DNA of 64,000 bases from a virus (taxonomy: Duplodnaviria; Caudoviricetes): IMG/VR virus record IMGVR_UViG_2904541872_000002, positions 1,693-65,692 of that record; one strand, 5' to 3'. This document shows, one piece after another, positions 5,020-16,855 of this stretch; position 1 is the first letter of the stretch; every line of letters starts with the position of its first letter. The notes under the pieces were generated by a model. The model ran no database searches, was not told the DNA's origin, and saw only the letters and a program-made list of their open reading frames with translations. Both the position numbers and the translations under genes were made by a program.

Positions 5020-5580
5020 CTACTGCGCGGCGAGGCAGGCGGCGTGGCGCTCCTGCTGGCGCAGCCACACGCCCTTGCAGCCTTTGGGGCCCCAGTTCTG
5101 CGGCAGCGCGCAATCGCGCTTGGCCTGGAATCGATAGCGCAGGAGCGCGTCGCACGCGGCGCGCGGCCGACCGGCGCGCAGCTCGCGCTGCATGCTTGAG
5201 CCGGTCCAGTTGCTCATGCCGAACTGCCCCACGAAGTTCATGTAGAGGTCAAACTCCTCCTGGGTCAGCATCACGCCGGGCAGCGAGGCGGCGAACCGCC
5301 GCTCTTCGGGTCGGTTGAGGTTGCGCGCGAGTTCCTCGGCGCGCCGGCGCGTGATCGGTGGATCTGCCAGCGTCACGCGCGTGCCGTCCTCGTAGCGGGT
5401 GGAGCCGTGCCCGATCGTGGGCACGTCGCCCTGCGTGGGTATGTAGGGGTGCAGCACCTCCACGCCATCGCCGCGCACCGTGACCGGGCCGTCACCCTCC
5501 TGCGCCTTCCACGCGCCGAAGCCCGCCACCGACAACGTCAGGGCCGCCACAGCGATGCGCACACGGCTGGGCGCGGCCAT
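5020..5580 (-). CDS. SAR endolysin, GH24 (phage lysozyme) family
   Basis: Start at ATG 5580 overlapping holin stop; N-terminal Ala/Gly-rich SAR segment, catalytic EG, YIPTQGDVPTIGHGST, C-terminal G...RQQE...C. Confidence 0.9.
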   Translation of the reverse strand: MAAPSRVRIAVAALTLSVAGFGAWKAQEGDGPVTVRGDGVEVLHPYIPTQGDVPTIGHGSTRYEDGTRVTLADPPITRRRAEELARNLNRPEERRFAASLPGVMLTQEEFDLYMNFVGQFGMSNWTGSSMQRELRAGRPRAACDALLRYRFQAKRDCALPQNWGPKGCKGVWLRQQERHAACLAAQ

Positions 5581-5891
5581 CAGTCGGTCTCCGTCGGCCG
5601 CAGGGCAGCCCACTCGCTCGGCGTGAGCACCAGGCGCGGCTTCGGCTTGATCCACCCGACCCGCTCGAAGAAAGGGCGCCAGAACTTTTTCCAGCAGAAC
5701 TCCGCGAGCAGCGCGAGCGTGTAGATGGCGGCGGCCGCGGAGGCCAGGTTCGGCCAGCTGAGCACGAACAGGTCGGCGAAGGCCGAGGTTGCCTTGGTGG
5801 CGCTTTCCACGACCTGCGCCCCCGCGGCAGAAGCGATAGCGGCCCCGGCCTTCACGGCGGGCGCGCTGATGGTGGTGGGGTCTTCGTTCAT
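5580..5891 (-). CDS. Holin-like membrane protein
   Basis: 103 aa, hydrophobic segment LSWPNLASAAAAIYTLALLAEFCW plus basic tail, directly upstream of endolysin. Confidence 0.75.
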   Translation of the reverse strand: MNEDPTTISAPAVKAGAAIASAAGAQVVESATKATSAFADLFVLSWPNLASAAAAIYTLALLAEFCWKKFWRPFFERVGWIKPKPRLVLTPSEWAALRPTETD

Positions 5892-5940: not shown

Positions 5941-5968
5941 AGCGACTTCGCCGCTACCATTCACATGC

Positions 5969-5994
5969 GACTAGCCTAACGGCCAGAACCGGTC
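5969..5994. repeat. 26-bp GGCC-centred cassette-boundary site 1
   Basis: GACTAGCCTAAC-GGCC-AGAA-CCGGTC. Confidence 0.5.
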
Positions 5995-6071
5995 ATCGAG
6001 CGTCGCGGCTGATTGCAACAGAGTTCGAACCCCGACCTGAGGAGCACACCGCTTGCGGCGTGAACAGACAG

Positions 6072-6461
6072 ATGAAGATGTACATCCTTGTCCGAGACGA
6101 CATCCCGCTAGGCTTCGCCATGGTCGCCGTGGCTCATGCATCCTTGGCAGGCTATCTCAAGTTTCAGAACGAGCCAGAAACACAGAAGTGGCTTTCGGGC
6201 CCTTTTTTCAAGGCCGTCTGTAAGGCGAATGCCAAAGAGTTTGAGAACGCCAAACAGGTTGGCGACCATCTGGTTTTGACTGAATCTGCGCTTGAGAATC
6301 AAGAGGTAGCGATTGTCTTCAAGCCTCGGGATGAATGGCCAAAGATGTTCAAATTCCTTCGACTCTACAAGGAGGCCCCATTGCCTCCGGCTGTGTCTGA
6401 ATGGCAGGGCGCGGCCAGAAGCAGACCTCTATTGTCCAACAGCATCAGAAAACTCCTGTGA
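6072..6461 (+). CDS. Peptidyl-tRNA hydrolase 2 (Pth2)-like protein, cargo gene
   Basis: MKMYILVRDDIPLGFAMVAVAHA start, W..GPFFKAVCKAN, LTES, AIVFKPR; low GC; reads through site 6401-6426; alternative GTG start 6060. Confidence 0.75.
   Translation: MKMYILVRDDIPLGFAMVAVAHASLAGYLKFQNEPETQKWLSGPFFKAVCKANAKEFENAKQVGDHLVLTESALENQEVAIVFKPRDEWPKMFKFLRLYKEAPLPPAVSEWQGAARSRPLLSNSIRKLL
6401..6426. repeat. 26-bp GGCC-centred cassette-boundary site 2
   Basis: ATGGCAGGGCGC-GGCC-AGAA-GCAGAC. Confidence 0.55.
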
Positions 6462-6504
6462 TTAAAACCTTCAGTGGCGTTGCATTGGTGGGCTACGGGC
6501 GTCA

Positions 6505-7104
6505 TTGATGGACGTCCAGCCTTCAGTTGATCCTGCTGTTTTCTCCCACATTCGTGTGGTGCTCAGCATGGTGGTGAGCCTGGGGATCGCACGATTGCTA
6601 TCCGGCGTGGCCCGGTTTGTCCAGCATCCTGGGCGCAGGCCTGCGTACGGCGTCCACTTGGTGTGGGCGCTGTCCCTGCTGCTATCGATGATGCACTTCT
6701 GGTGGTGGGAGTTTTCCCTCTCGCACTTGCAGGTCTGGCGCTTCGAGACCTATGTCTTTGTCGTCGGTTATGCCGCTCTCTACTACCTCCTCTGTACAAT
6801 TCTCTTCCCCGACGACCTAGCGGAATACGCAGGCTACCGTGACTACTTCATGTCTCGTCGGCGATGGTTCTTCGGACTGCTGGCCACGACGTATATCGTC
6901 GATGTCGCAGACACCTGGATCAAAGGTCGAGACCACCTTAGCGCGCAGGGGTACGAATATCCGATAAGGACCGTCGTTTATGTGGTGCTATGCCTTCTCG
7001 CGGCGCGCACCGCCAATGCGCGTTTTCATATCGCTTTTGCTGTGCTCAGCCTGGTCTACCAAGTCTCATGGATCCTTCGCCTGTACGACGTGATCGGTAT
7101 TTGA
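6505..7104 (+). CDS. Multi-pass inner-membrane protein, cargo gene
   Basis: 199 aa, about 5-6 hydrophobic segments, HFWWWEF and LFPDD motifs, low GC, antisense to late operon. Confidence 0.8.
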   Translation: MMDVQPSVDPAVFSHIRVVLSMVVSLGIARLLSGVARFVQHPGRRPAYGVHLVWALSLLLSMMHFWWWEFSLSHLQVWRFETYVFVVGYAALYYLLCTILFPDDLAEYAGYRDYFMSRRRWFFGLLATTYIVDVADTWIKGRDHLSAQGYEYPIRTVVYVVLCLLAARTANARFHIAFAVLSLVYQVSWILRLYDVIGI

Positions 7105-7186
7105 GCTGCAATCGGATTCTCATGGGTGAACGTTTTCGGGCAAGTGCGCACGTAGCGCCCGCAACGACTGCTTTGGAGAGCTCCGA

Positions 7187-7237
7187 CCGGCTGGTTCGGG
7201 CCCAAAGCAGACATCCCCGATGCCTGAAAGCAGACAT
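7187..7237. repeat. 26-bp GGCC-centred cassette-boundary site 3 plus adjacent half-site
   Basis: CCGGCTGGTTCG-GGCC-CAAA-GCAGAC (7187-7212) then GCCT-GAAA-GCAGAC-AT (7222-7237). Confidence 0.55.
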
Positions 7238-7257
7238 TCGTCCGGGCAATGGCGCGT

Positions 7258-7539
7258 CTACCCTTGAGCCTTCGTCCACCGCTTGTGCAGTGCGAAGCTG
7301 CGATGCCGAGTCCGTTGCTCGTACTGTCGTCCGCGACCGATGGCTTCAAGCCTCGTCGCGATTACGGAGTCGATTGGTGCGCCTTGCTCCAGCCACCCGA
7401 CCGCAAGCGCGGGCCAGTAGTCGGTCGGCCAGTTCAGCGCACCAAGAAGAATCTCGCTTGCTGGCATCGAACCGGAGTACGACGAGTACGGCGACTCCAG
7501 CGCCGGTAGAAAGCGAATGAACTCGGGGTCTGATGCCAT
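7258..7539 (-). CDS. Small hypothetical protein, cargo gene
   Basis: 93 aa, W-rich (NWPTDYWPALAVGWLEQG), low GC, lies between two boundary sites. Confidence 0.65.
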   Translation of the reverse strand: MASDPEFIRFLPALESPYSSYSGSMPASEILLGALNWPTDYWPALAVGWLEQGAPIDSVIATRLEAIGRGRQYEQRTRHRSFALHKRWTKAQG

Positions 7540-7545
7540 AGCTTA

Positions 7546-7571
7546 GTGTCTGCTCCTGGCCGACTGTAGCC
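7546..7571. repeat. 26-bp GGCC-centred cassette-boundary site 4
   Basis: GTGTCTGCTCCT-GGCC-GACT-GTAGCC. Confidence 0.55.
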
Positions 7572-7681
7572 GGTCACACAGCCGTCGCGAAGGGGCTTTT
7601 GCAAACGCTCAACATGGGCACGCTCTAGCCCCCAAAGTCAACCATGCAGCACGACGGTGCCTCCCTTAGCCGAAACTCCGC

Positions 7682-10600
7682 TTAGTGCGCATCCGCCCGA
7701 GCGCGAGCAAGTTCTTCTTGCATCCGCGCGCGCATCGCACGCGGCGCCGTGTCAGCGATGCGCTGGTCCTTCGACCTTTGCATGTTGCGCACCCGCTCCA
7801 GTACGCTCGGGATGCGGATCACCATGGGTTGGTCGGGATTCTTCGCGTTCCAATCCGCGATCGCCTCGCGCGCGGCGCGCACCTTCGCATCGTCCTTCTC
7901 GAAGATGCCAGCCGCCCACTGCGCTCGGATCTCCTGGCCGCGCAGGTTGTAGAAGGCCTTCGCCTGCTGATTGAGGGCGTTCGCCTCCTGGATGGTGGCC
8001 ACGCTCTGCGGCTGGAAGCCGATCGCCTTCAGCGCCGCCTCGAGGTGGTTGGTCTCCAGCACCTTGTAGCCCTTCGCGTCGCGATACATGCCGGTTGCGG
8101 CCATGTCCACGCCCTTCGCCGCGTTGCGCACGGCTGTGGGCGCGACCTCCAGTGCGCCGGCGCCGACGTTGCCCTTCGCCACGTTCAGCGCGCCGGAGAA
8201 GATGCGGCTCGCGAAGTCGCCGGCCGGGCCCGCGATCTCGAGCACGTCGCGCGTGTGGCTGGTCTTCTGCTGCAGCAGCCCGGTGCCCGGGATCAGGTTG
8301 CCCATGCCCAAGCGGCCGGACACGTCCAGCGGCGCGCCCGGCAGGCCGCTCACGCCCTTGTCAAGGAAGTCGGCGATGCCCTTCGGCAGCATCGCTTCGA
8401 GCACCTCCTGGCGCGCCTTCTTCGCCGAGAAGTTGTAGCCCAGCAGCTGCGCGAGCGCGTCGGCCACATCCTCGGCGTCCTCGGCGAATGGCAGGCCACC
8501 CGAGCCGCCCATCAGCATCAGCATGCCCAGCGCCAGCAGCGCGGCGCGCTTGCCCTCGGGCCCACCCTGCGTGTACATGCGGTGCAGCAGCTCGAGGTAG
8601 GCGATGGAGTAGGTCTTGAACGTCATGAGCGTGCCGCCCACGGCGCCGCGGCCCCATTGCATCTTCGAGGCCTTCGAGTAGACGAATTGGGTTTCCTTCA
8701 CCGCGCGGTTGGCGAATGCAGCGGGATCGGCCTCGCCGCGATCGCGCGCCACGCGGTAGGCGGCGATGAATGTGATCCGGCGATTCACCTGCTCGGCTGC
8801 GCCAAAGACCTTGCCCCATGCGAGCGACAGCCGCGCCAGCGCATTCTGGCCGGCGGCCCGGGCCTCGCCCAGCCGCGTGCCGTCGCCAGCGCGCAGCGAA
8901 CCCGAGCCGCGGGCCTGCGCCATGAGCTGGTGCACCTCCTGCGGCGCGACGACGCCCTCGTCCTCGGCGGTCTTGAGCGCCTTGGCCAAGTCCGGCTCGA
9001 ACTCGAAGCCCTTCGTGGCCATGTTCTTCGCCGCAGTGCCCAGCGCCGCGGCCGCCTTGCGCGCGCCGCCAAACTGGCTGAGCCAGGGGAACGTCACAGC
9101 GGCCGGCTGCGTCATGTTCACGAACGCAGAAGCGATCGAGCCGCCGAGGTACTGCGCGAACAGCAGGCCGCGCACCGCCTGCGCTTCCTCCTGCGGGTTC
9201 TTCACGTACTCGGCCAGGCGCACGGCAACGTCTTTCAGCTCGCCCTGCTCCTTCGGGATCGCGTTCACGGCCTCGCCCAGGTCGCCCATGTTCAGGCCGG
9301 CGGCAGTCTGCCGCGCATTGCTGTAGATGAAGCTGGCCAGCACGCGGCCCACGTCCTCGCTGAAGCCCGCGATGCCCTTGCGATGGATCAGGCGGCGCAT
9401 AGCGCTGCGATTGGTCTTCGTGAGCTTCAGGTACTCCTGGAAGGCCTGGTCCTGCGCGCGATCGCCGGTCGAGCTGAGGCCCAGCGCATTGCCGAACAGC
9501 TCGAGCGTCTCGGGCGTGACGCCGGCGAACATCTTGAAGGCCTCCTCGGACAGCGTGCCCTGGCTGACTGCGCCCTCGCCGAACTCGCCGCGCATGCGCG
9601 CGGCCATGGTGTTGGCCTCGCGCGCGGTCTCGAACAGGCCGAAGTACTGCCGCTCGCCCTTGGCATCGACGACGTCGACCGAGTAGCGGCCGAAGCGCGA
9701 CAACGGCGCGTAGCCGCGGGCCTGCAGATCGCGCACCTTGTCGGCCCGGTCCATGATGCCGTTGGCGGTGTTCATCAGCAGCGTGGAGCGGTCGGGCTGG
9801 TCGGCCGCGAGCTGCGCGAGGTGATCGCGGATCAGCACCGCCGCCGCCTGCGCGTCCGGCGCGTCCATCACCATCGTGCGCAGGCCCTTGGCGTCGTCGC
9901 CTGCAAAGCGCAGCATGTCGGCGCGCGCCATGGTGTCGAGGGAGCGGTTCGTCGCTTCCCGGAACTCCCGGTACAGCGCGACCTGGTCGTCGGTCAGCTG
10001 GAACATGCTGCGCAGCTCCGCATCGCTCCAGACCACGCCCGGCTGCAGCATGCGCGACTCGTAGCGCGACGCCACGGCCTTCTCGTACGACTCGAGCGGC
10101 ATTCCCTGCCAAGCCTTGAGCATGCGCTCGTCGAGCATGCCGTTGCGCAGCAGGCGCTGGGCCTTCTGCTCGGATGTGAGTCCGGCCGCGGCATCGATCA
10201 GGGACTGCACCTGCACCGGCTTGCCCTGCTCGTCCCGCGCCCAGGTCAACGTGCCCTCGAAAACCGGCTTGGCCACCGCTGCGTTGTCGGCGGCGGAGAT
10301 AGGCGACTTCTTGATGTCGCGCCAAGTCTCCAGCTTCGGCAGCAGCTTGGGCGCCAGTTCGGCCGCGTCGGTGGCGTAGTGGCTCACATCGTCGACGAAG
10401 CCCTGCGCAGCATCGAAGACGGGCTTGAACGCCGGCGAACGCTCGGCCAGGTTGTACATCGTGCCGATGGTCTTGTGCCACCAGCTGAGCCGGCCCGGCG
10501 CCGAGAACGACTTGTTGAGTTCGGCGGCCGCGGTGCGCGCGTACTCGCCCACGGTCGAGCGGCTGAACATGATGTCGGGGTTCGACTCGTCGAAGGTGCC

Positions 10601-13600
10601 GGCATTGCCGCTGGCGCTCTTAATCTGCCCCGGCTGGAACACGATGAACTCGCGCCCGCCGCCCTGGTGGCTGACGATGATCCCGTCGTAGCCTCGGCTG
10701 ATGAGTTCTTGCCGGACGTAGTCGTCGTCCATCTCGGCGCCAGGCTGCTCCATGACCTGGTTGACGACCTCGAGCGGCGCGGGATTCTTGAGGGAAAGAT
10801 AGACGTCCATCACGCGACCGCCCTCGCCTTCCGCGTAGGCCGCGGCGGCCTGCTTCTGGTCCGTGAAGTAGAAGCCATTGCCCCAATCGGCGTTGCCGTC
10901 GCCCTCACCGAGGAACTCGTCGTTGAAGGCCGTGAACTCCGCCGTGGTGCCGTGGAACACCTGCAGCGGCGCGCCCTGGGCGTCCACCACCTTGCTTTCG
11001 CCGAACCACGCGCGGAAGGCGGGCGTCGAAGTCTGTTCGGTGCCCGTGGGCTCGCCCTCCGCCGGGTTGACGCTGTAGATGCGATCCAGGACACTACGGA
11101 TTGCTCCGGCATCCGCTCTGGACTGCACCCCAGCTCCGGCTGCACCTGCACCAGCCTCGAAGGCGGACTGCTGGAGCTTCTCTCTCAGGACCACCTCGTG
11201 GACGTACATGCGCTTGGCATTCGAGTCCGCCTTCACCAGCACCACCTCCACCATGTCGCGATCGCTGATGCGCACCGGCGCGGCGACGTGGTAGACCATG
11301 CCCGCGTCGCGCGCGCCCTCCATCGCTTCGGCGTGGATGATCTTGCCGTTCTTGAGCACGTCCGGCACCGCAGCGAAGGCCGTTGCCTTGTCCCGGCCAA
11401 TGCCGTGGAACAGGCTGCTCTTCACGGACTGGCGGTCGAGCGACACGAGGCCGATGCCGGGCACCTCCACCTGCGCGTTGCCCGTGGTCGCGTAGTGCTC
11501 CGTCACCTTCTCGGTGATGGGCACGCCGTCCGGCGCGAACTCCTTCCCGGTCATCTGCGCCACTGGAGCGCCTTCCAGGAACGCGCGGCTCTCGGCGTCG
11601 GGGTCGGTCCCTTCGGCCCGGCTGAACGCGAGGCCGGCGCGCGGCGCCGCGGCGCCGGCGCTGCGCTCCACGAATGCGCGCGCCGGCAGGATGAAGTTCC
11701 GGATGATCTCGTCGTCGGTGAGGCGCAGGCCACGGAAGCCGGCCACGTTCTCGCGCAACCAGGTGCGGATGGCGGCCACCGCGCGCCGCACGAAGTGCAG
11801 CTCGGGCGTGTTCTGCGCCATTTCGGCCAGCACCTCTTCGGCGGCCGCGCGGCGGTCCAGCTTGTTCACGCCGCGTAGGCCGTACTCGCGCACCTTCGCG
11901 TCGACCTCCGTGCGGCGCATCGTCGCGATCTGGTTGAGCACGCCGTCCAGCTGCTTGCCGAAGGTGCCCCGCAGGCCGTGGTGGCCCAGCACCTCGTGGT
12001 AGAGCACGCGCGCCGCGTCCTCGGCGGTGCCCAGGCGCGAAGCCATCAGGTAGGCCTTGCCGCGGTAGTAGAAGCCCTCCGGCGCGCCGCGCGCGCCACC
12101 GCTGCGCTGGCGCAGATCCGCGCGGCGCGCGGCCTCCGGCACGGCCGCATCGTTCATGTCGAAGGCCACCACGATGTCCGGCGCGTTGCCCCAGGCGCTG
12201 CGGATCGCATCGACCGTCTTCCGCACGGTGGCCACGGCCTGCGCCCGTGCCTGCGGCGAGTAGGTCGGGCGGCTGAGCGCACGCATGGCGTTCGCTGCCT
12301 CGGGCGACATGCCCGCCAAACCGTCGTCCCCGCGGCGGAACAGCGCGGTGTTGCCGTTCTCGCCGGCGCGCGTCTCGATCGTCGTAGCGAGTTGGTCGAA
12401 TGCCTGGTTGATTCGAGCCCGCTCGAGGCCGGCCGGGTACTGCACGCCGGACTCGACGCCGTGCACCAGGTAGTCGGAGCGGGCACCCATCGCCTTGATG
12501 CGATCGAACACCCACGACTCGAAGGCGCGCGCGAACATCTCGGTCGGTCGGGTCCAGTAGCTCTCCTTCCCCTCCTTGATGCCCAGCGACGACTCGTAGT
12601 AGCTGCTCTCCTTGCGCCCCTGGCGCACTGCGTCGGGCGGCAGGCCCAGCGCCTTGGCCAGGTTCTGGCGGGCCGAATCGACGCCGGTGCTGTAGATCCG
12701 CTTCAGGTCTTCGTCGGCGGTACCGGCCAGTCGCGCCTGCGCGCGCTCCAGCGTGAGCTCGGCGTCGCGCACCAGCGCCGCACGGTCGACCTGCTCCCGG
12801 TAGATGGTGCTCATGACCCGGTCGAACGCGCTGGCCAGCTCGGGCCGCAGGTTCTCGAGCCGACCACGACGGCCGGTTCGCTGAGGATCGCCGTCGTAGC
12901 TGCCTTGCGTGTACCAGCCGCTGGCGCCGCGGGCACGCCCCTGATAGGCATCTGCCTGCTCGAGCTCTCCGAAGTAGTGGTCGAGCGCGTGAGCCCACTC
13001 GTGCGCGAGACTGCCGCCGCCGCGGATCTTGGTCATGTTGATGACCAGGCGCCCGGGCTCGTAGTGCGCGGCGAACCGACCGCCGCCGCGCGCCCCGAAG
13101 GCCAGGCCCATGGTGCCGTTCAGGCTCATCGCCGATGGCGGCACGCCCATGACCTGCGCAAGATCGCTCAGGCCGTCGTAGGCCATGTTGATGATGCGCT
13201 GACGCTCGTCCTGAGCGCTCCAGTTGCCGAACTCGATGCCGCGGAAGCCGAAGTCGCGGATGAAGTCGTCCGGCGTCGCGTCTCGGTCCAGGCGCTGCGG
13301 CAGGCCCGCGCGCTGCAGGACGTCGAGATGCGGGCGCTCCGGCTCTTGCCCACGGGTCGTGCTGGCCAGCTCGGCCTCGTAGAGGCGCCGCGCCGCCGCC
13401 TCGGCGTCCTCTCGCGTCATCGCGTAGGCAAGCACTCGGCCACCGATCTGTCGACGGACCTCGAAGTAGGAGCCCGCGATCTGCTCGGCCGTCAGTGGCG
13501 TGCCCATCTCCGCCGACTGCTCGAGCGTCAGCTCGCGGCCGCGCGGCGTGAGCGATTTGCCACTCGCTTCCCTGACGCCGAAGCGCCTGGCCCACGGCTC

Positions 13601-16600
13601 GCCTTTGGCAGGGAAGCCGTCGGCCACCATCTTGCGAACGCGCATCAAGTCCGAGTGGTCGAGCACGAACGGGTCGCTGCGTCCCTTGTACACGGAGAAC
13701 AGCGTGGCGCGGGCCTCGCGCTGATGCGCGCCGAGATCCTCGATGCCCGCTGCATTGCGCCGCGCGAGGTCGCTACGGCCCTCGGTCCATCGCAGATGGT
13801 CGTACAGCAGGCGCTCCTTCGCGCCGGCAATGTTTTCCGGGGTGAGCTCGCTGTACACCGCGCGCACCGCCTGCATCATGCGCACGTAGCGGCGGCGGCC
13901 CGCTGGCGTGTTGTCCTTCGGCTGCGCGGCGAGGCGGTCGTAGATCACTTTCGCCGATGCCGCGGTCACGGGGTTCATGCCGCCGCTGACCAACGCCGTC
14001 CAGTCGGGCTTCCAGATGTTCGCCTTCGTGGCCAGCTCGGCGCCTTCGGCCTCGCTCATCTCGTTGAGGTCGGACACGTTGAGGCCGCGCTCCTTCCAAC
14101 GATCCTTTCGGGCGCCGCCGATCTTCTCGCCGGCATCCTGGATGCTCTCGGCAGGCGCAGCCGCTGGCGTGCGCGGCGGACGCTTTTTCTCGGGCTCCTT
14201 CGCTTCAACGGGTCGGCCCGACGGCAAAGCCGTCGGCTCGGGCGTGGGCGTGGGCGTGGGCGTGGGCGTGGGCTCGGGCTCGGGCTCGGGCGTGGGCGTG
14301 GGCGTGGGCGTGGGCGTGGGCGTGGGCGTGGGCGTGGACGTGGGCGTGGGCGTGGGCGTGGGCGTGGGCGTGGGCGCCGAAGCATCGTCCAACGTCGAGC
14401 TGGGGAACTCACGGGCGGCCTCGAGCAGTAGGTCGATCGGCGCATCCAGGCGGATCGTGCGCACGTCTTCGCCCCGCTCGCGTGCGGCGAGCCATTGGTG
14501 GTGGCCGTCGAGCACATGGCCGTCGCTGGACACCAGAATCGCGCGATCGCCGCCCGTGAACTCGCCAGCCCATTGGACGCGATCCGGACTGAACTCCGCC
14601 TGGGTCGGCTTGAGGCTGGCGGCCGGTACCGTCTCATCCGTGTGCGCAATGCCGCGTGCGCTCATGAAGTTGACCATTGCGCCACGGTGCTCCGCGCGGA
14701 TCTGCGGCATTTCCGACCGCGGCACACCCTTCGTCCCGGAGTCCGCCGCGAAGGTCGACCACTCGCCATCCGCCGCGCGGCCCAGCTGCTTCGCTGCCGG
14801 CAGCGGCTCACGCGCTTGAGGATGCGCTGCCGGCGCGGCCGGCGCCGCGCTCGTGGCGCTCCGCTCCTTCACCACGTAGCGCCGGTTCTCGGGCACCACC
14901 TCGTGCGTGTCGGCCAGGCCGTTCTCGCTGACGAAGGCATCGGCCTTGGCCTGGGACAGGAACCACGCCTTGCCCTCTTCCACTCGGCGCTGCGCCTTCT
15001 CGCGGCGCGCCGAGGGCACGGCCGGTGCCGGTGCCGGTGCCGGTGCCGGTGCCGGTGCCGGTGCCGGTGCGGGTGCTGCTGGCGCGGGCGGCGCCGCGCG
15101 GCGCGCGCGCGCCCGGGCAATGCCGTCTCGCACGCTGGTCGGCGCCGCCGCTGCGTCGACAGCTGCTGCCGGCGCAGCTGGCGCCGCTATGGCTTTCGCT
15201 GGCTCGGCTCGTCCTTGCTCGGCCGGAGCTGCTGCAGCAGCCGGTTGCGCGCCTTGGGCGACATCTGCCGCAGGCGCAACAGCGCCGCGAGCACCTTCTT
15301 CCGGGCCCGTGGCTCCGCGGGCAGCTTGAATGGCATCTGCAATCTCCTGGTCGTTCGCGCCAAGGGCGCGGAGGAATTGTTCATCGGTGACGTTGCGGTC
15401 GCCGAAGTCGGGCACGTCGTCCTCGAGCGCGGCGGCCATGTGCCCTTCGGTCTCACGGTCGAGCGCGTGGAAGTAGTCGTCGTAGAGCGTACGGTCGCGC
15501 TCGTCGAGGTCGGAGTAGTCGAGCACGGGCGGCGCCGCGCGGTTGGCAGCCGTGGCCTCCTCCTGCTCGGCCATCGCGGCAGCGTCGGCTTGGCGCTGGG
15601 CGTCCTGCAGCAGCTGGCCGTGCGCACCGGAATCCACGGCGATCGCGGCGCCGGTGGAGAGCGGGCCGGCAGCCGGGTCGATGCCCATGGCCTGAGACGG
15701 CAGCGGTGCTGCGCGCACAGCTGGCGCGCCAGCTGGTGCCTCGGTGGACGGCGGCGATGGTTGCGGCGCCAGGCCCATCAGGCGCGTCCGCGCCGCGGCG
15801 CGCTGTTCTTCCGGCAGGCGCGCGAGATAGGCGTCGACCTCTGCCTGCCGGCCGACGGTTCCATCGGGGAACGCGACGAGCGTGTCGGGCTGGTAACCGA
15901 GCTGCAGCGGCTCGGCGGCAGGGGCCGCGGCGGACTCGCCGCGCGCGCCCGCGCCGTGCACCAGCGCCGCGCCGCCGCCCATCGCACCGCCGGCCAGCAG
16001 GCCCTGCGCGGCGGCCGCACCGACGCCCTCGCCTACGGGCTTGTCGAGCGCGAGGTTCTGCAGCGCCTGCTCGGCCATCGACTGCGGGACCTCCTCGAGC
16101 ACGCCCTCGGAGAGCACGCCCTCGCCCACCTGGCGCGCCAGCGAGCGCTGCGAGGCATGGCCAGCGCCGCGGATCGAGCCCTGCGCCAGCATGGTGTCGG
16201 CGTCGCCGATGCCGAGGCGCTGCGCGACGCGGCCGCCGGCGGCACCGAACGCGGTGGTGGTCACGCCGCTCGCGGCGGCCAGCGCCGCCTGCTGTGGGGT
16301 CAGCAGCCCGTCCGTGGTCTCCTGGCGGATCTGCTCGGCCTGCGAGCCAGCGCCCAGCACGCCCTCGCCGATCGCACCGGCGATGGCCGGCGCAATCTTC
16401 GCGCCCGTGGCCAGCACGCCCCGCGCCACGCCGGCGCCGCCGAGCATCTGCGGGATCGACTCGCCCACGCTGGTCGCGATCGTGCTCGGGTTCTCCAGCA
16501 TCGCCTGGGCCGTGCCCACGAAGCCGTCGGCCTCGGCCACCTTGCGGTTGGCGGCCTTCTGCGCATCGGAGTACTGGTCCGCGAGGATGTCCTGGGTGTC

Positions 16601-16855
16601 CTTGAAGCGCACGCCAGCGTCCTCGACGGCCTTGCCGGCTCGGCCGCCGGTGAACAGGTCGGCTACACCGACCACGCTCTGCGGCAAGCCCACTGCGCCC
16701 TTCAGCGCGGTGATGCCAACGTCCTTGGCAACGTCGAGCGCGGTGCGTTTCGGCGCCGCGGGCTCGACCTCTTTCGCACCAGCTTTCCACCAGCCGTCAC
16801 CGGCTGGTGCCGACTCCTCGGGCTTGGCGCCCTGCTGCCACCAGTTCTGTTCCAT
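7682..16855 (-). CDS. Giant polyvalent internal virion/ejection protein (ParB-like, LPD5-, LPD1-, LPD3-like, two zincin motifs, ART-PolyVal-like, PLxRFG domain)
   Basis: 3057 aa; LKPTQ...DGHHQW; IQDAGEKIGGARKD; HEWAH; YWTRPTEMFARAFESWV; HEVLGH; FHGT/GFYFT/REFIV; YAPLSRFGRY. Confidence 0.9.
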   Translation of the reverse strand: MEQNWWQQGAKPEESAPAGDGWWKAGAKEVEPAAPKRTALDVAKDVGITALKGAVGLPQSVVGVADLFTGGRAGKAVEDAGVRFKDTQDILADQYSDAQKAANRKVAEADGFVGTAQAMLENPSTIATSVGESIPQMLGGAGVARGVLATGAKIAPAIAGAIGEGVLGAGSQAEQIRQETTDGLLTPQQAALAAASGVTTTAFGAAGGRVAQRLGIGDADTMLAQGSIRGAGHASQRSLARQVGEGVLSEGVLEEVPQSMAEQALQNLALDKPVGEGVGAAAAQGLLAGGAMGGGAALVHGAGARGESAAAPAAEPLQLGYQPDTLVAFPDGTVGRQAEVDAYLARLPEEQRAAARTRLMGLAPQPSPPSTEAPAGAPAVRAAPLPSQAMGIDPAAGPLSTGAAIAVDSGAHGQLLQDAQRQADAAAMAEQEEATAANRAAPPVLDYSDLDERDRTLYDDYFHALDRETEGHMAAALEDDVPDFGDRNVTDEQFLRALGANDQEIADAIQAARGATGPEEGARGAVAPAADVAQGAQPAAAAAPAEQGRAEPAKAIAAPAAPAAAVDAAAAPTSVRDGIARARARRAAPPAPAAPAPAPAPAPAPAPAPAPAVPSARREKAQRRVEEGKAWFLSQAKADAFVSENGLADTHEVVPENRRYVVKERSATSAAPAAPAAHPQAREPLPAAKQLGRAADGEWSTFAADSGTKGVPRSEMPQIRAEHRGAMVNFMSARGIAHTDETVPAASLKPTQAEFSPDRVQWAGEFTGGDRAILVSSDGHVLDGHHQWLAARERGEDVRTIRLDAPIDLLLEAAREFPSSTLDDASAPTPTPTPTPTPTSTPTPTPTPTPTPTPTPEPEPEPTPTPTPTPTPEPTALPSGRPVEAKEPEKKRPPRTPAAAPAESIQDAGEKIGGARKDRWKERGLNVSDLNEMSEAEGAELATKANIWKPDWTALVSGGMNPVTAASAKVIYDRLAAQPKDNTPAGRRRYVRMMQAVRAVYSELTPENIAGAKERLLYDHLRWTEGRSDLARRNAAGIEDLGAHQREARATLFSVYKGRSDPFVLDHSDLMRVRKMVADGFPAKGEPWARRFGVREASGKSLTPRGRELTLEQSAEMGTPLTAEQIAGSYFEVRRQIGGRVLAYAMTREDAEAAARRLYEAELASTTRGQEPERPHLDVLQRAGLPQRLDRDATPDDFIRDFGFRGIEFGNWSAQDERQRIINMAYDGLSDLAQVMGVPPSAMSLNGTMGLAFGARGGGRFAAHYEPGRLVINMTKIRGGGSLAHEWAHALDHYFGELEQADAYQGRARGASGWYTQGSYDGDPQRTGRRGRLENLRPELASAFDRVMSTIYREQVDRAALVRDAELTLERAQARLAGTADEDLKRIYSTGVDSARQNLAKALGLPPDAVRQGRKESSYYESSLGIKEGKESYWTRPTEMFARAFESWVFDRIKAMGARSDYLVHGVESGVQYPAGLERARINQAFDQLATTIETRAGENGNTALFRRGDDGLAGMSPEAANAMRALSRPTYSPQARAQAVATVRKTVDAIRSAWGNAPDIVVAFDMNDAAVPEAARRADLRQRSGGARGAPEGFYYRGKAYLMASRLGTAEDAARVLYHEVLGHHGLRGTFGKQLDGVLNQIATMRRTEVDAKVREYGLRGVNKLDRRAAAEEVLAEMAQNTPELHFVRRAVAAIRTWLRENVAGFRGLRLTDDEIIRNFILPARAFVERSAGAAAPRAGLAFSRAEGTDPDAESRAFLEGAPVAQMTGKEFAPDGVPITEKVTEHYATTGNAQVEVPGIGLVSLDRQSVKSSLFHGIGRDKATAFAAVPDVLKNGKIIHAEAMEGARDAGMVYHVAAPVRISDRDMVEVVLVKADSNAKRMYVHEVVLREKLQQSAFEAGAGAAGAGVQSRADAGAIRSVLDRIYSVNPAEGEPTGTEQTSTPAFRAWFGESKVVDAQGAPLQVFHGTTAEFTAFNDEFLGEGDGNADWGNGFYFTDQKQAAAAYAEGEGGRVMDVYLSLKNPAPLEVVNQVMEQPGAEMDDDYVRQELISRGYDGIIVSHQGGGREFIVFQPGQIKSASGNAGTFDESNPDIMFSRSTVGEYARTAAAELNKSFSAPGRLSWWHKTIGTMYNLAERSPAFKPVFDAAQGFVDDVSHYATDAAELAPKLLPKLETWRDIKKSPISAADNAAVAKPVFEGTLTWARDEQGKPVQVQSLIDAAAGLTSEQKAQRLLRNGMLDERMLKAWQGMPLESYEKAVASRYESRMLQPGVVWSDAELRSMFQLTDDQVALYREFREATNRSLDTMARADMLRFAGDDAKGLRTMVMDAPDAQAAAVLIRDHLAQLAADQPDRSTLLMNTANGIMDRADKVRDLQARGYAPLSRFGRYSVDVVDAKGERQYFGLFETAREANTMAARMRGEFGEGAVSQGTLSEEAFKMFAGVTPETLELFGNALGLSSTGDRAQDQAFQEYLKLTKTNRSAMRRLIHRKGIAGFSEDVGRVLASFIYSNARQTAAGLNMGDLGEAVNAIPKEQGELKDVAVRLAEYVKNPQEEAQAVRGLLFAQYLGGSIASAFVNMTQPAAVTFPWLSQFGGARKAAAALGTAAKNMATKGFEFEPDLAKALKTAEDEGVVAPQEVHQLMAQARGSGSLRAGDGTRLGEARAAGQNALARLSLAWGKVFGAAEQVNRRITFIAAYRVARDRGEADPAAFANRAVKETQFVYSKASKMQWGRGAVGGTLMTFKTYSIAYLELLHRMYTQGGPEGKRAALLALGMLMLMGGSGGLPFAEDAEDVADALAQLLGYNFSAKKARQEVLEAMLPKGIADFLDKGVSGLPGAPLDVSGRLGMGNLIPGTGLLQQKTSHTRDVLEIAGPAGDFASRIFSGALNVAKGNVGAGALEVAPTAVRNAAKGVDMAATGMYRDAKGYKVLETNHLEAALKAIGFQPQSVATIQEANALNQQAKAFYNLRGQEIRAQWAAGIFEKDDAKVRAAREAIADWNAKNPDQPMVIRIPSVLERVRNMQRSKDQRIADTAPRAMRARMQEELARARADAH
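14235..14376. repeat. Hexamer microsatellite (GGGCGT)n with GGGCTC variants, encoding a (PT)n/(PE)n linker
   Basis: About 23 tandem 6-bp units, in frame in the giant protein. Confidence 0.95.
15021..15070. repeat. Hexamer microsatellite (GCCGGT)8 encoding an (AP)n linker
   Basis: Eight perfect 6-bp units. Confidence 0.95.

Follow-up and report, generated by a model that had tools for sequence, protein, structure and literature searches.

Integrons are the textbook route by which bacteria collect single genes, and the tools that find gene cassettes look for the integrase IntI and for attC sites. Hin, a serine recombinase, acts at one fixed locus. At least one report mentions attC sites in phage genomes (PMC9892861). 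In the shufflon of IncI plasmids, the sfx sites have a variable left arm, a conserved core of about 7 bp and a conserved right arm of about 12 bp, and the recombinase Rci has an extra C-terminal domain (PMC11852207). Here we describe four related GGCC-centred sites and the three small genes that lie between them, on an insert in a provirus of the Caudoviricetes (IMG/VR record IMGVR_UViG_2904541872_000002). The stretch analyzed, which we call the window, is 64,000 nucleotides long (positions 1,693 to 65,692 of the record) and makes up nearly all of the 65.7-kb provirus record. The sites are probably the joints of three single-gene cassettes that come from a site-specific cassette system of Burkholderiales, distinct from integrons. 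All coordinates are window positions unless a locus is named; L numbers denote individual loci or contigs and G numbers denote genomes.

Results

Sites in the window

The initial annotation of the window described four 26-bp sites of uniform layout and placed three genes between them: one encoding a protein similar to the Pth2 family, one encoding a membrane protein and one encoding a 93-aa protein. We found the GGCC motifs where it had put them (5981, 6413, 7199 and 7558), and the sites lie at the boundaries of all three genes. The strict form of the site (GGCC-N4-GCAGAC) is present three times in the 64-kb window compared to an expected 0.48, and none of 100 shuffled sequences reached three. 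All three strict matches fall within 1.15 kb of insert sequence, and they are the sole matches in the entire provirus record. The annotation had also suggested a matrix scan. We built a matrix from 21 sites (those in the window and in four metagenomic array contigs) and used a threshold score of at least 14. In the window, scores at or above the threshold are confined to these sites, and there are none in 91 kb of unrelated chromosomal DNA.

Other parts of the original description needed revision. Site 4 is inverted: it is the same site on the minus strand, with a strict copy at 7548-7561. At site 1, the common layout holds for the core and a variant right arm, both of which are kept in the L011 copy of cassette 1, and does not hold for the left arm, which has decayed. 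Full sites are larger than 26 bp. In DNA folds, an inverse copy of the right arm pairs with the right arm itself to form imperfect hairpins of 45-70 nt. Site 3, for example, scores 31.1 on the plus strand and 17.8 on the minus strand, and its positions 7166-7176 pair with 7202-7212 (-16.7 kcal/mol). Site 3 is a tail-to-tail joint, which is possible because the inverse arm of one cassette resembles the right arm of another. The half-site postulated next to site 3 is real: the 11-mer at 7227-7237 exactly duplicates that at 7204-7214.

We aligned 68, and later 131, sites to obtain a consensus. After the core, written TC-GGCC-A, comes a conserved right arm with the consensus AGAAGCNGAC and then AT. 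In the 131-site profile, conservation is strong across the core and the right arm. The left arm mirrors the right arm in a weaker and degenerate form, in which G at position -10 and C at position -8 are best kept. A cassette consists of the GGCC core with the conserved right arm of 10-12 bp, one open reading frame (ORF), and the inverse of that arm at its end. The right arm goes with the downstream ORF, and the upstream ORF terminates in the inverse arm. Where the inverse arm abuts the core, the two form a palindrome of 24-28 bp; otherwise a spacer of about 16 nt and a variable left arm intervene. Neighboring cassettes meet at the core, whose self-complementarity lets them lie in either orientation. 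The order in the window is a boundary site, cassette 1, cassette 2, an inverted cassette 3, an inverted 3'-end element that has no cassette body, and 71 nt.

The motifs are short, and in site 4, read on the minus strand, AGGAG precedes the start codon of the 93-aa gene by 13 nt. Both properties would fit a chance similarity, or operators or ribosome-binding contexts of three genes. The motif statistics, and the recurrence of the same sites more than 130 times at cassette boundaries in unrelated genomes, contradict this explanation, which we regard as extremely improbable.

Cassettes and their homologues

Two of the three genes, the Pth2-like gene and the 93-aa gene, have homologues that are flanked by the same sites beside different neighbors. 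The homology of cassettes 1 and 3 to their metagenomic copies ends at the GGCC cores, and the sequences beyond are unrelated. These copies lie in rows of small ORFs with the same site between the ORFs (L011-L015); the neighboring ORFs belong to the ankyrin, SMI1_KNR4, DUF4177, 2OG-Fe(II) oxygenase or helix-turn-helix (HTH) families or have no known function. The 93-aa protein has only 10 homologues, all of them metagenomic, and the four that we examined are all between such sites.

The match of the first ORF (6060/6072-6461) to the Pth2 family is weak. Its closest copy (L011/L012) has 93% protein identity. Close homologues number nearly a thousand; they are 102-114 aa long and align to 77-86% of the protein. 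We found no relative in IMG/VR. As the initial annotation noted, the frame crosses site 2. It attributed this to loss of the stop codon on insertion; instead, there is a point change, with TGG at 6402-6404 compared to TGA at the aligned codon of L011, and this change results in a read-through tail of 19 codons that crosses site 2.

The ORF of cassette 2 (6505-7104) encodes a membrane protein of no known family that is 82-91% identical to the products of chromosomal genes of Variovorax, Pseudorhodoferax and Roseateles. Relatives of this gene elsewhere are plain chromosomal genes adjoining a gene for a LysR regulator.

Arrays in bacteria and other phages

We surveyed 301 genomes of one bacterial family for the strict site, using the reversed pattern as a control. 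The site is present in 42 genomes, about 7 of which have at least three copies, and 259 genomes have no match. The reversed pattern gave about 6 matches in total. Arrays of 5-19 sites are found in a few Burkholderiales, among them Variovorax sp. LT1R20 (G001), Rhodoferax ferrireducens BE313 (G233) and G264. In the arrays L024, L035 and L051, the ORFs are small and mostly single, and the orientation of the sites matches that of the genes. In G001 there are 14 strict sites, some within a 6-kb array and others at several contig ends, whereas a second Variovorax genome has none. Three G001 contigs share a cassette end at their start, and their sequences part immediately beyond the core, indicating that one cassette is joined to three different neighbors in a single genome. 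A 6.7-kb segment that carries the G001 array is missing from another Variovorax genome, and comparison with this empty site did not define an attB.

An element of about 80 bp just left of the G001 array (L024, 12016-12098) recurs in most of the 81 Variovorax genomes that we searched, in many of them several times, with identities of 75-96%; it is not called a tRNA by ARAGORN. One cassette of the R. ferrireducens array (L035, 10891-12048, minus strand) encodes a 385-aa protein of the beta-lactamase family PF00144, far above the size of the other cassettes. A search of two arrays against Rfam gave no match.

Short GC-rich palindromes that follow genes, some of them paired into larger hairpins, are also typical of repetitive extragenic palindromic (REP) sequences and of the BIMEs and REPINs associated with RAYT transposases (PMC3733652). 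The sites could be intergenic palindromes of the REP or REPIN type, perhaps mobilized by a RAYT or serving as terminators or mRNA stabilizers, and their position at gene boundaries would then reflect accumulation. The sites are indeed GC-rich hairpins downstream of genes, the commonest left arm includes the complement of GTAG, which is described as a tag of REPs (PMC3733652), and G001 and G233 each have a gene for a Y1 transposase (RAYT, PF01797). However, a looser pattern finds 13-20 copies of the site each in G001 and in G233, where they cluster in a small number of arrays, and the strict site is absent from most genomes of the family. A REP family spread over whole genomes would be distributed differently, as REPs are described as high-copy. 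In addition, the homology between cassette copies breaks at the core, no Y1 transposase was found in G264, and the sites flank a gene for a tyrosine recombinase at a fixed distance (see below). Unlike REP systems, then, the sites are low in copy number, confined to arrays, coincident with homology breakpoints and linked to a tyrosine recombinase and not to a Y1 transposase. We think it unlikely that they are REPs.

Three other IMG/VR records contain the strict site. Two of them have arrays 2-3 kb from an endolysin gene, and in the third the sites follow the tail terminator gene. The earlier proposal that cargo is loaded into moron slots of phages is borne out only for the slot in the window; the three provirus records suggest that there are other such slots.

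Comparison with integrons

The arrays have much in common with integrons and with CALINs (attC clusters without an integrase). Both have arrays of single ORFs with a hairpin-forming imperfect inverted repeat that is split at the cassette boundary and has a fixed orientation relative to the gene. Both include orphan arrays without an enzyme, both have a tyrosine recombinase as the enzyme or its likely equivalent, and in both the same cassette, bounded at the site, is found in different arrays. The sites could therefore be unusual attC sites, and the insert a CALIN of a classical integron serviced by IntI. A 3.8-kb contig of G178, in which these sites and two GNAT cassettes are directly downstream of a true intI, is consistent with this possibility.

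Most of the evidence points away from attC. The attC pattern (RYYYAAC...GTTRRRY, 40-130 nt apart) has no matches in L024, L035, L011, L013 or L015. Conversely, a true integron of the same bacterial family (G211) has about 20 attC matches and no GGCC-type site, in agreement with the initial annotation, which had set the sites apart from attC. IntI, scored as a match to TIGR02249 above its cut-off, was not found in four of the six array-bearing genomes checked (G001, G233, G264 and G110) and is present in G178 and G211. The next cassette receives 14 conserved bases at the boundary, compared to 6 in integrons. The sites also lack the AAC/GTT core triplets and have a self-complementary core; cassettes are found in both orientations; a genome has several small arrays instead of one platform; and the candidate enzyme, described below, has 207 aa and no N-terminal domain. 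We read the neighborhood of intI in G178 as a juxtaposition, which keeps the attC explanation alive at a low level, and overall we consider that explanation very unlikely.

The positive control, L043 (G211 contig C3, 292-312 kb), is a classical integron on the chromosome, where about 20 attC sites of about 100 nt adjoin intI. On the G178 contig (L039, contig C40, 2384-2515), a stretch of about 100 bp right after the intI stop codon is bounded by two GGCC-type sites, and the two GNAT cassettes come after it. Its inner arms are like those of the recombinase unit described below, and it may be a gene-less miniature of that unit.

Candidate recombinase

The provirus has no tyrosine (PF00589) or serine recombinase, consistent with the initial observation that none is nearby, and its array is thus an orphan. 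To look for a co-occurring enzyme, as that annotation had proposed, we listed all PF00589 genes in three genomes with arrays. G233 and G001 each have one small PF00589 gene that adjoins sites, and the two proteins are 67% identical. In G233 the gene is at the end of a 13-kb array of about 19 sites, and in G001 it abuts an array and the cassette shared by the three contigs; no recombinase was found beside the arrays in L024 and L035. We had also considered a serine recombinase, as the arm resembles a resolvase half-site, and dropped it when neither G001, the genome with the most sites, nor the provirus gave a match to PF00239.

The recombinase has 207 aa and matches PF00589 only (62.8-66.8 bits, cut-off 27.1), so that it comprises just the catalytic domain. 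It is far below the cut-offs of the models for XerC, XerD, XerA, IntI and invertases (for IntI, 22 bits compared to 265), and in databases it is named simply "tyrosine-type recombinase/integrase". Residues R58, K86, H155, R158, H181 and Y190 are invariant, and the H-x-x-R motif, the second H and the Y align with those of XerD. The gene is present in 53 of the 301 genomes and in 18 of the 42 that have sites (odds ratio 4.8, p = 2.7e-5). There are at least 582 copies in data with one genome per species, in Acidovorax, Hydrogenophaga, Roseateles, Rubrivivax, Variovorax, Ramlibacter, Comamonas and other genera. Five virus records also carry it, four of them with sites nearby.

We analyzed 80 named recombinase loci out of the 582 or more, scanning 880 kb for the core and right arm. 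There are 111 matches at the 80 loci, and 62 of these are within 500 bp of the recombinase gene. The upstream matches are about 95-490 bp before the gene, with most between -121 and -189; the minus strand carries 31 of the 33. Those downstream range from +86 to +229, with most between +86 and +117, and the plus strand carries 27 of the 29. A match is present within 400 bp at 42 of the 80 loci, and within 500 bp on both sides at 16. The fixed distances and orientations indicate that the recombinase gene lies in a unit of about 0.87 kb with inverted, conserved inner arms and with right arms that point outward. This is the picture that would be expected once a circular element has recombined with a palindromic minimal site, and a Hin-like invertible segment would look the same. 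The inner arms of Comamonas-type loci differ from those of Variovorax-type loci. Since the polarity of the unit is opposite to that of the cargo cassettes, the gene is not simply another cassette.

A separate feature of these loci is a conserved leader, located about 30 nt ahead of the recombinase start codon at most of 12 loci (L055-L066), with a consensus of roughly CCCTCAACTYGATGGGAGWCCATC and then ATG. In L055 and L056, which are the two closest relatives, the leader is a different one. The conserved leader may act in regulation or translation.

Alternatively, the sites could be used by the host recombinases XerC and XerD, as are the pdif modules on Acinetobacter plasmids, and the 207-aa recombinase would then be mere cargo. 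Like the cassettes, pdif modules are discrete gene modules bounded by arm-core-arm sites of about 28 bp and found in varied contexts and orientations. Most of the arrays have no linked enzyme, and XerC and XerD are present in every genome checked. However, the arms are unlike dif, as judged by eye against the dif consensus. The conserved, inverted inner arms of the recombinase unit and its orientation opposite to the cargo do not fit with plain cargo. The systems also differ in that a small dedicated recombinase is linked to the sites described here, which are found in chromosomes and prophages of Burkholderiales. Use of the sites by XerC and XerD therefore seems improbable to us.

Insertion slot in the provirus

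The insert lies between the start of the holin gene and the stop of a gene for a 3057-aa protein, both on the minus strand (Table 1). From 5945 to 7681 the G+C content is 50-60%, compared to about 70% in the surroundings. Using the holin, we retrieved three related proviruses (L005, L006 and L007), and their homology to the backbone in the window stops near 5944. The slot is empty in L005 and L006, with about 60 bp, and in L007 it contains an unrelated 700-bp insert with one ORF of phrog_7805. In the Pseudomonas phages USP_18 and USP_25, the gene order is giant gene, holin, lysozyme, and the gap between the giant gene and the holin gene is only about 100 bp. Based on the flanking genes and on the empty or different slots of the relatives, we conclude that the region is a 1.74-kb accessory insert in a variable slot adjoining the lysis genes.

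The ORF in L007 (5303-5902, minus strand) encodes a 199-aa protein with no known function and makes up a single-gene insert without a GGCC-type site, indicating that the slot receives cargo by more than one route. The 3' part of the giant ORF has 78% DNA identity to a gene for a "hypothetical protein" of about 4,900 aa in the Pseudomonas phages vB_PaeM_USP_18 and USP_25.

Table 1. Coordinates of the sites, cassettes and bordering genes in the window
Feature	Position	Strand	Remarks
Holin gene, left border of the slot	5580..5891	-	phrog_21780/phrog_920; 92% identical in L005-L007
Left boundary site (site 1 of the initial annotation lies within it)	5944..5996	+	Decayed inverse arm, spacer, left arm; GGCC 5981-5984; right arm 5985-5996
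Cassette 1 (Pth2-like)	5980..6412	+	Matches L011 2645-3077 and L012 at 90.3% nucleotide identity, as far as the cores of sites 1 and 2
Pth2-like ORF	6072..6461	+	GTG start at 6060 also possible; PF01981, 23.5 bits; phrog_1866
Site 2	6399..6428	+	Left arm, GGCC 6413-6416, right arm; matrix score 26.4
Cassette 2 (membrane protein)	6413..7198	+	Right arm, 92-nt leader, ORF 6505-7104, trailer with inverse arm 7166-7176, left arm 7185-7198
Site 3, hairpin-forming full site	7166..7214	+	Tail-to-tail joint of cassettes 2 and 3; GGCC 7199-7202
Cassette 3 (93-aa protein)	7199..7561	-	ORF 7258-7539; orientation opposite to that of cassettes 1 and 2; matches L013 and L014 over 7199-7571/7578 (85.5-86.6% nucleotide identity)
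Extra arm copy	7227..7237	+	11-mer identical to that at 7204; also present in L013 and L014
Site 4	7546..7575	-	GGCC 7558-7561; right arm just before the start of the 93-aa ORF; highest matrix score in the window (37.3)
Cassette 3'-end element without a body	7562..7610	-	Inverse arm, spacer, left arm; adjoins the phage backbone; long-class consensus of L024, L026, L027 and L036
71 nt from the last site element to the stop of the giant gene	7611..7681	.	Absent in L005 and L006
Giant phage gene (3057 aa), right border of the slot	7682..16855	-	Pseudomonas phages USP_18 and USP_25 have a gene with 78% nucleotide identity

Discussion

The initial annotation proposed a site-specific gene-cassette system for this locus, and the homology breaks at the sites, the arrays in bacteria, the absence of attC and the co-occurring recombinase support that proposal. 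We consider the 207-aa tyrosine recombinase, which consists of a catalytic domain only, to be the likely enzyme. It would bind the arms and exchange strands within a core of 7-8 bp. Circular cassettes would be inserted, DNA between direct sites would be deleted, and DNA between inverted sites would be inverted. The array in the window might have entered its slot during residence of the prophage in a host that supplied the enzyme, or it might have been captured as a block.

Several observations weigh against a cassette system of this kind. The junctions between phage and insert are not clean site halves, so the array may have come in by another route. The provirus itself carries no recombinase; 27 of the 80 recombinase loci have no site above the threshold; and G264 has arrays, and no copy of the recombinase was found in it. 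The membrane-protein gene has nucleotide homology in seven other contexts, which is restricted to the coding region (6506-7124), and none of the other homologues examined, which are at ordinary chromosomal loci, has sites. The G001 segment does not meet the chromosome at a site; the junction is a hairpin similar to a terminator. The recombinase unit could be an invertible segment like that of Hin rather than a mobile one. Finally, we infer catalysis, circular intermediates and the exact crossover point from sequence, the last because homology breaks at the core.

Two inversion systems resemble parts of the cassette system. The shufflon shares with it an asymmetric site, with a variable left arm and a conserved core and right arm (confirmed on the 131-site profile), multiple sites of both orientations in one region, and a tyrosine recombinase. 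However, shufflon segments are alternative ends of pilV and are known only to invert, whereas the cassettes described here are independent ORFs. In addition, a protein of 207 aa leaves no room for the extra C-terminal domain of Rci and does not match an enzyme of that type. Hin-type segments share with the recombinase unit a recombinase gene inside a segment of about 0.9 kb with inverted recombination sites at both ends. The unit described here differs in that it is found at many loci, in several copies and with cassettes attached.

We speculate that the recombinase unit is an autonomous element of about 0.87 kb that carries only the recombinase gene, and that single-gene cassettes are mobilized by it in trans. 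The two together might constitute an integron-independent means of gene capture in Burkholderiales, in which the self-complementary core would allow insertion, excision and inversion and which would load prophages near their lysis genes. This fuller model is tentative, and we give it slightly less than an even chance. We found no description in the literature of these sites, or of the 207-aa recombinase as a cassette enzyme, which is not proof that there is none.

The membrane-protein cassette may have formed recently. We know of no solution to the question of how cassettes originate in integrons, and a gene of chromosomal type that has cassette ends only in this provirus could provide a view of the birth of a cassette.

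The sites and the recombinase would add to integrons a second kind of cassette system, in which the sites differ and the recombinase is minimal. The recombinase and its site of about 30 bp could serve as a compact tool for genome engineering. If our interpretation is correct, part of the accessory genome of soil and freshwater Burkholderiales and some of the cargo of prophages would be moved by a mechanism that is invisible to current annotation.

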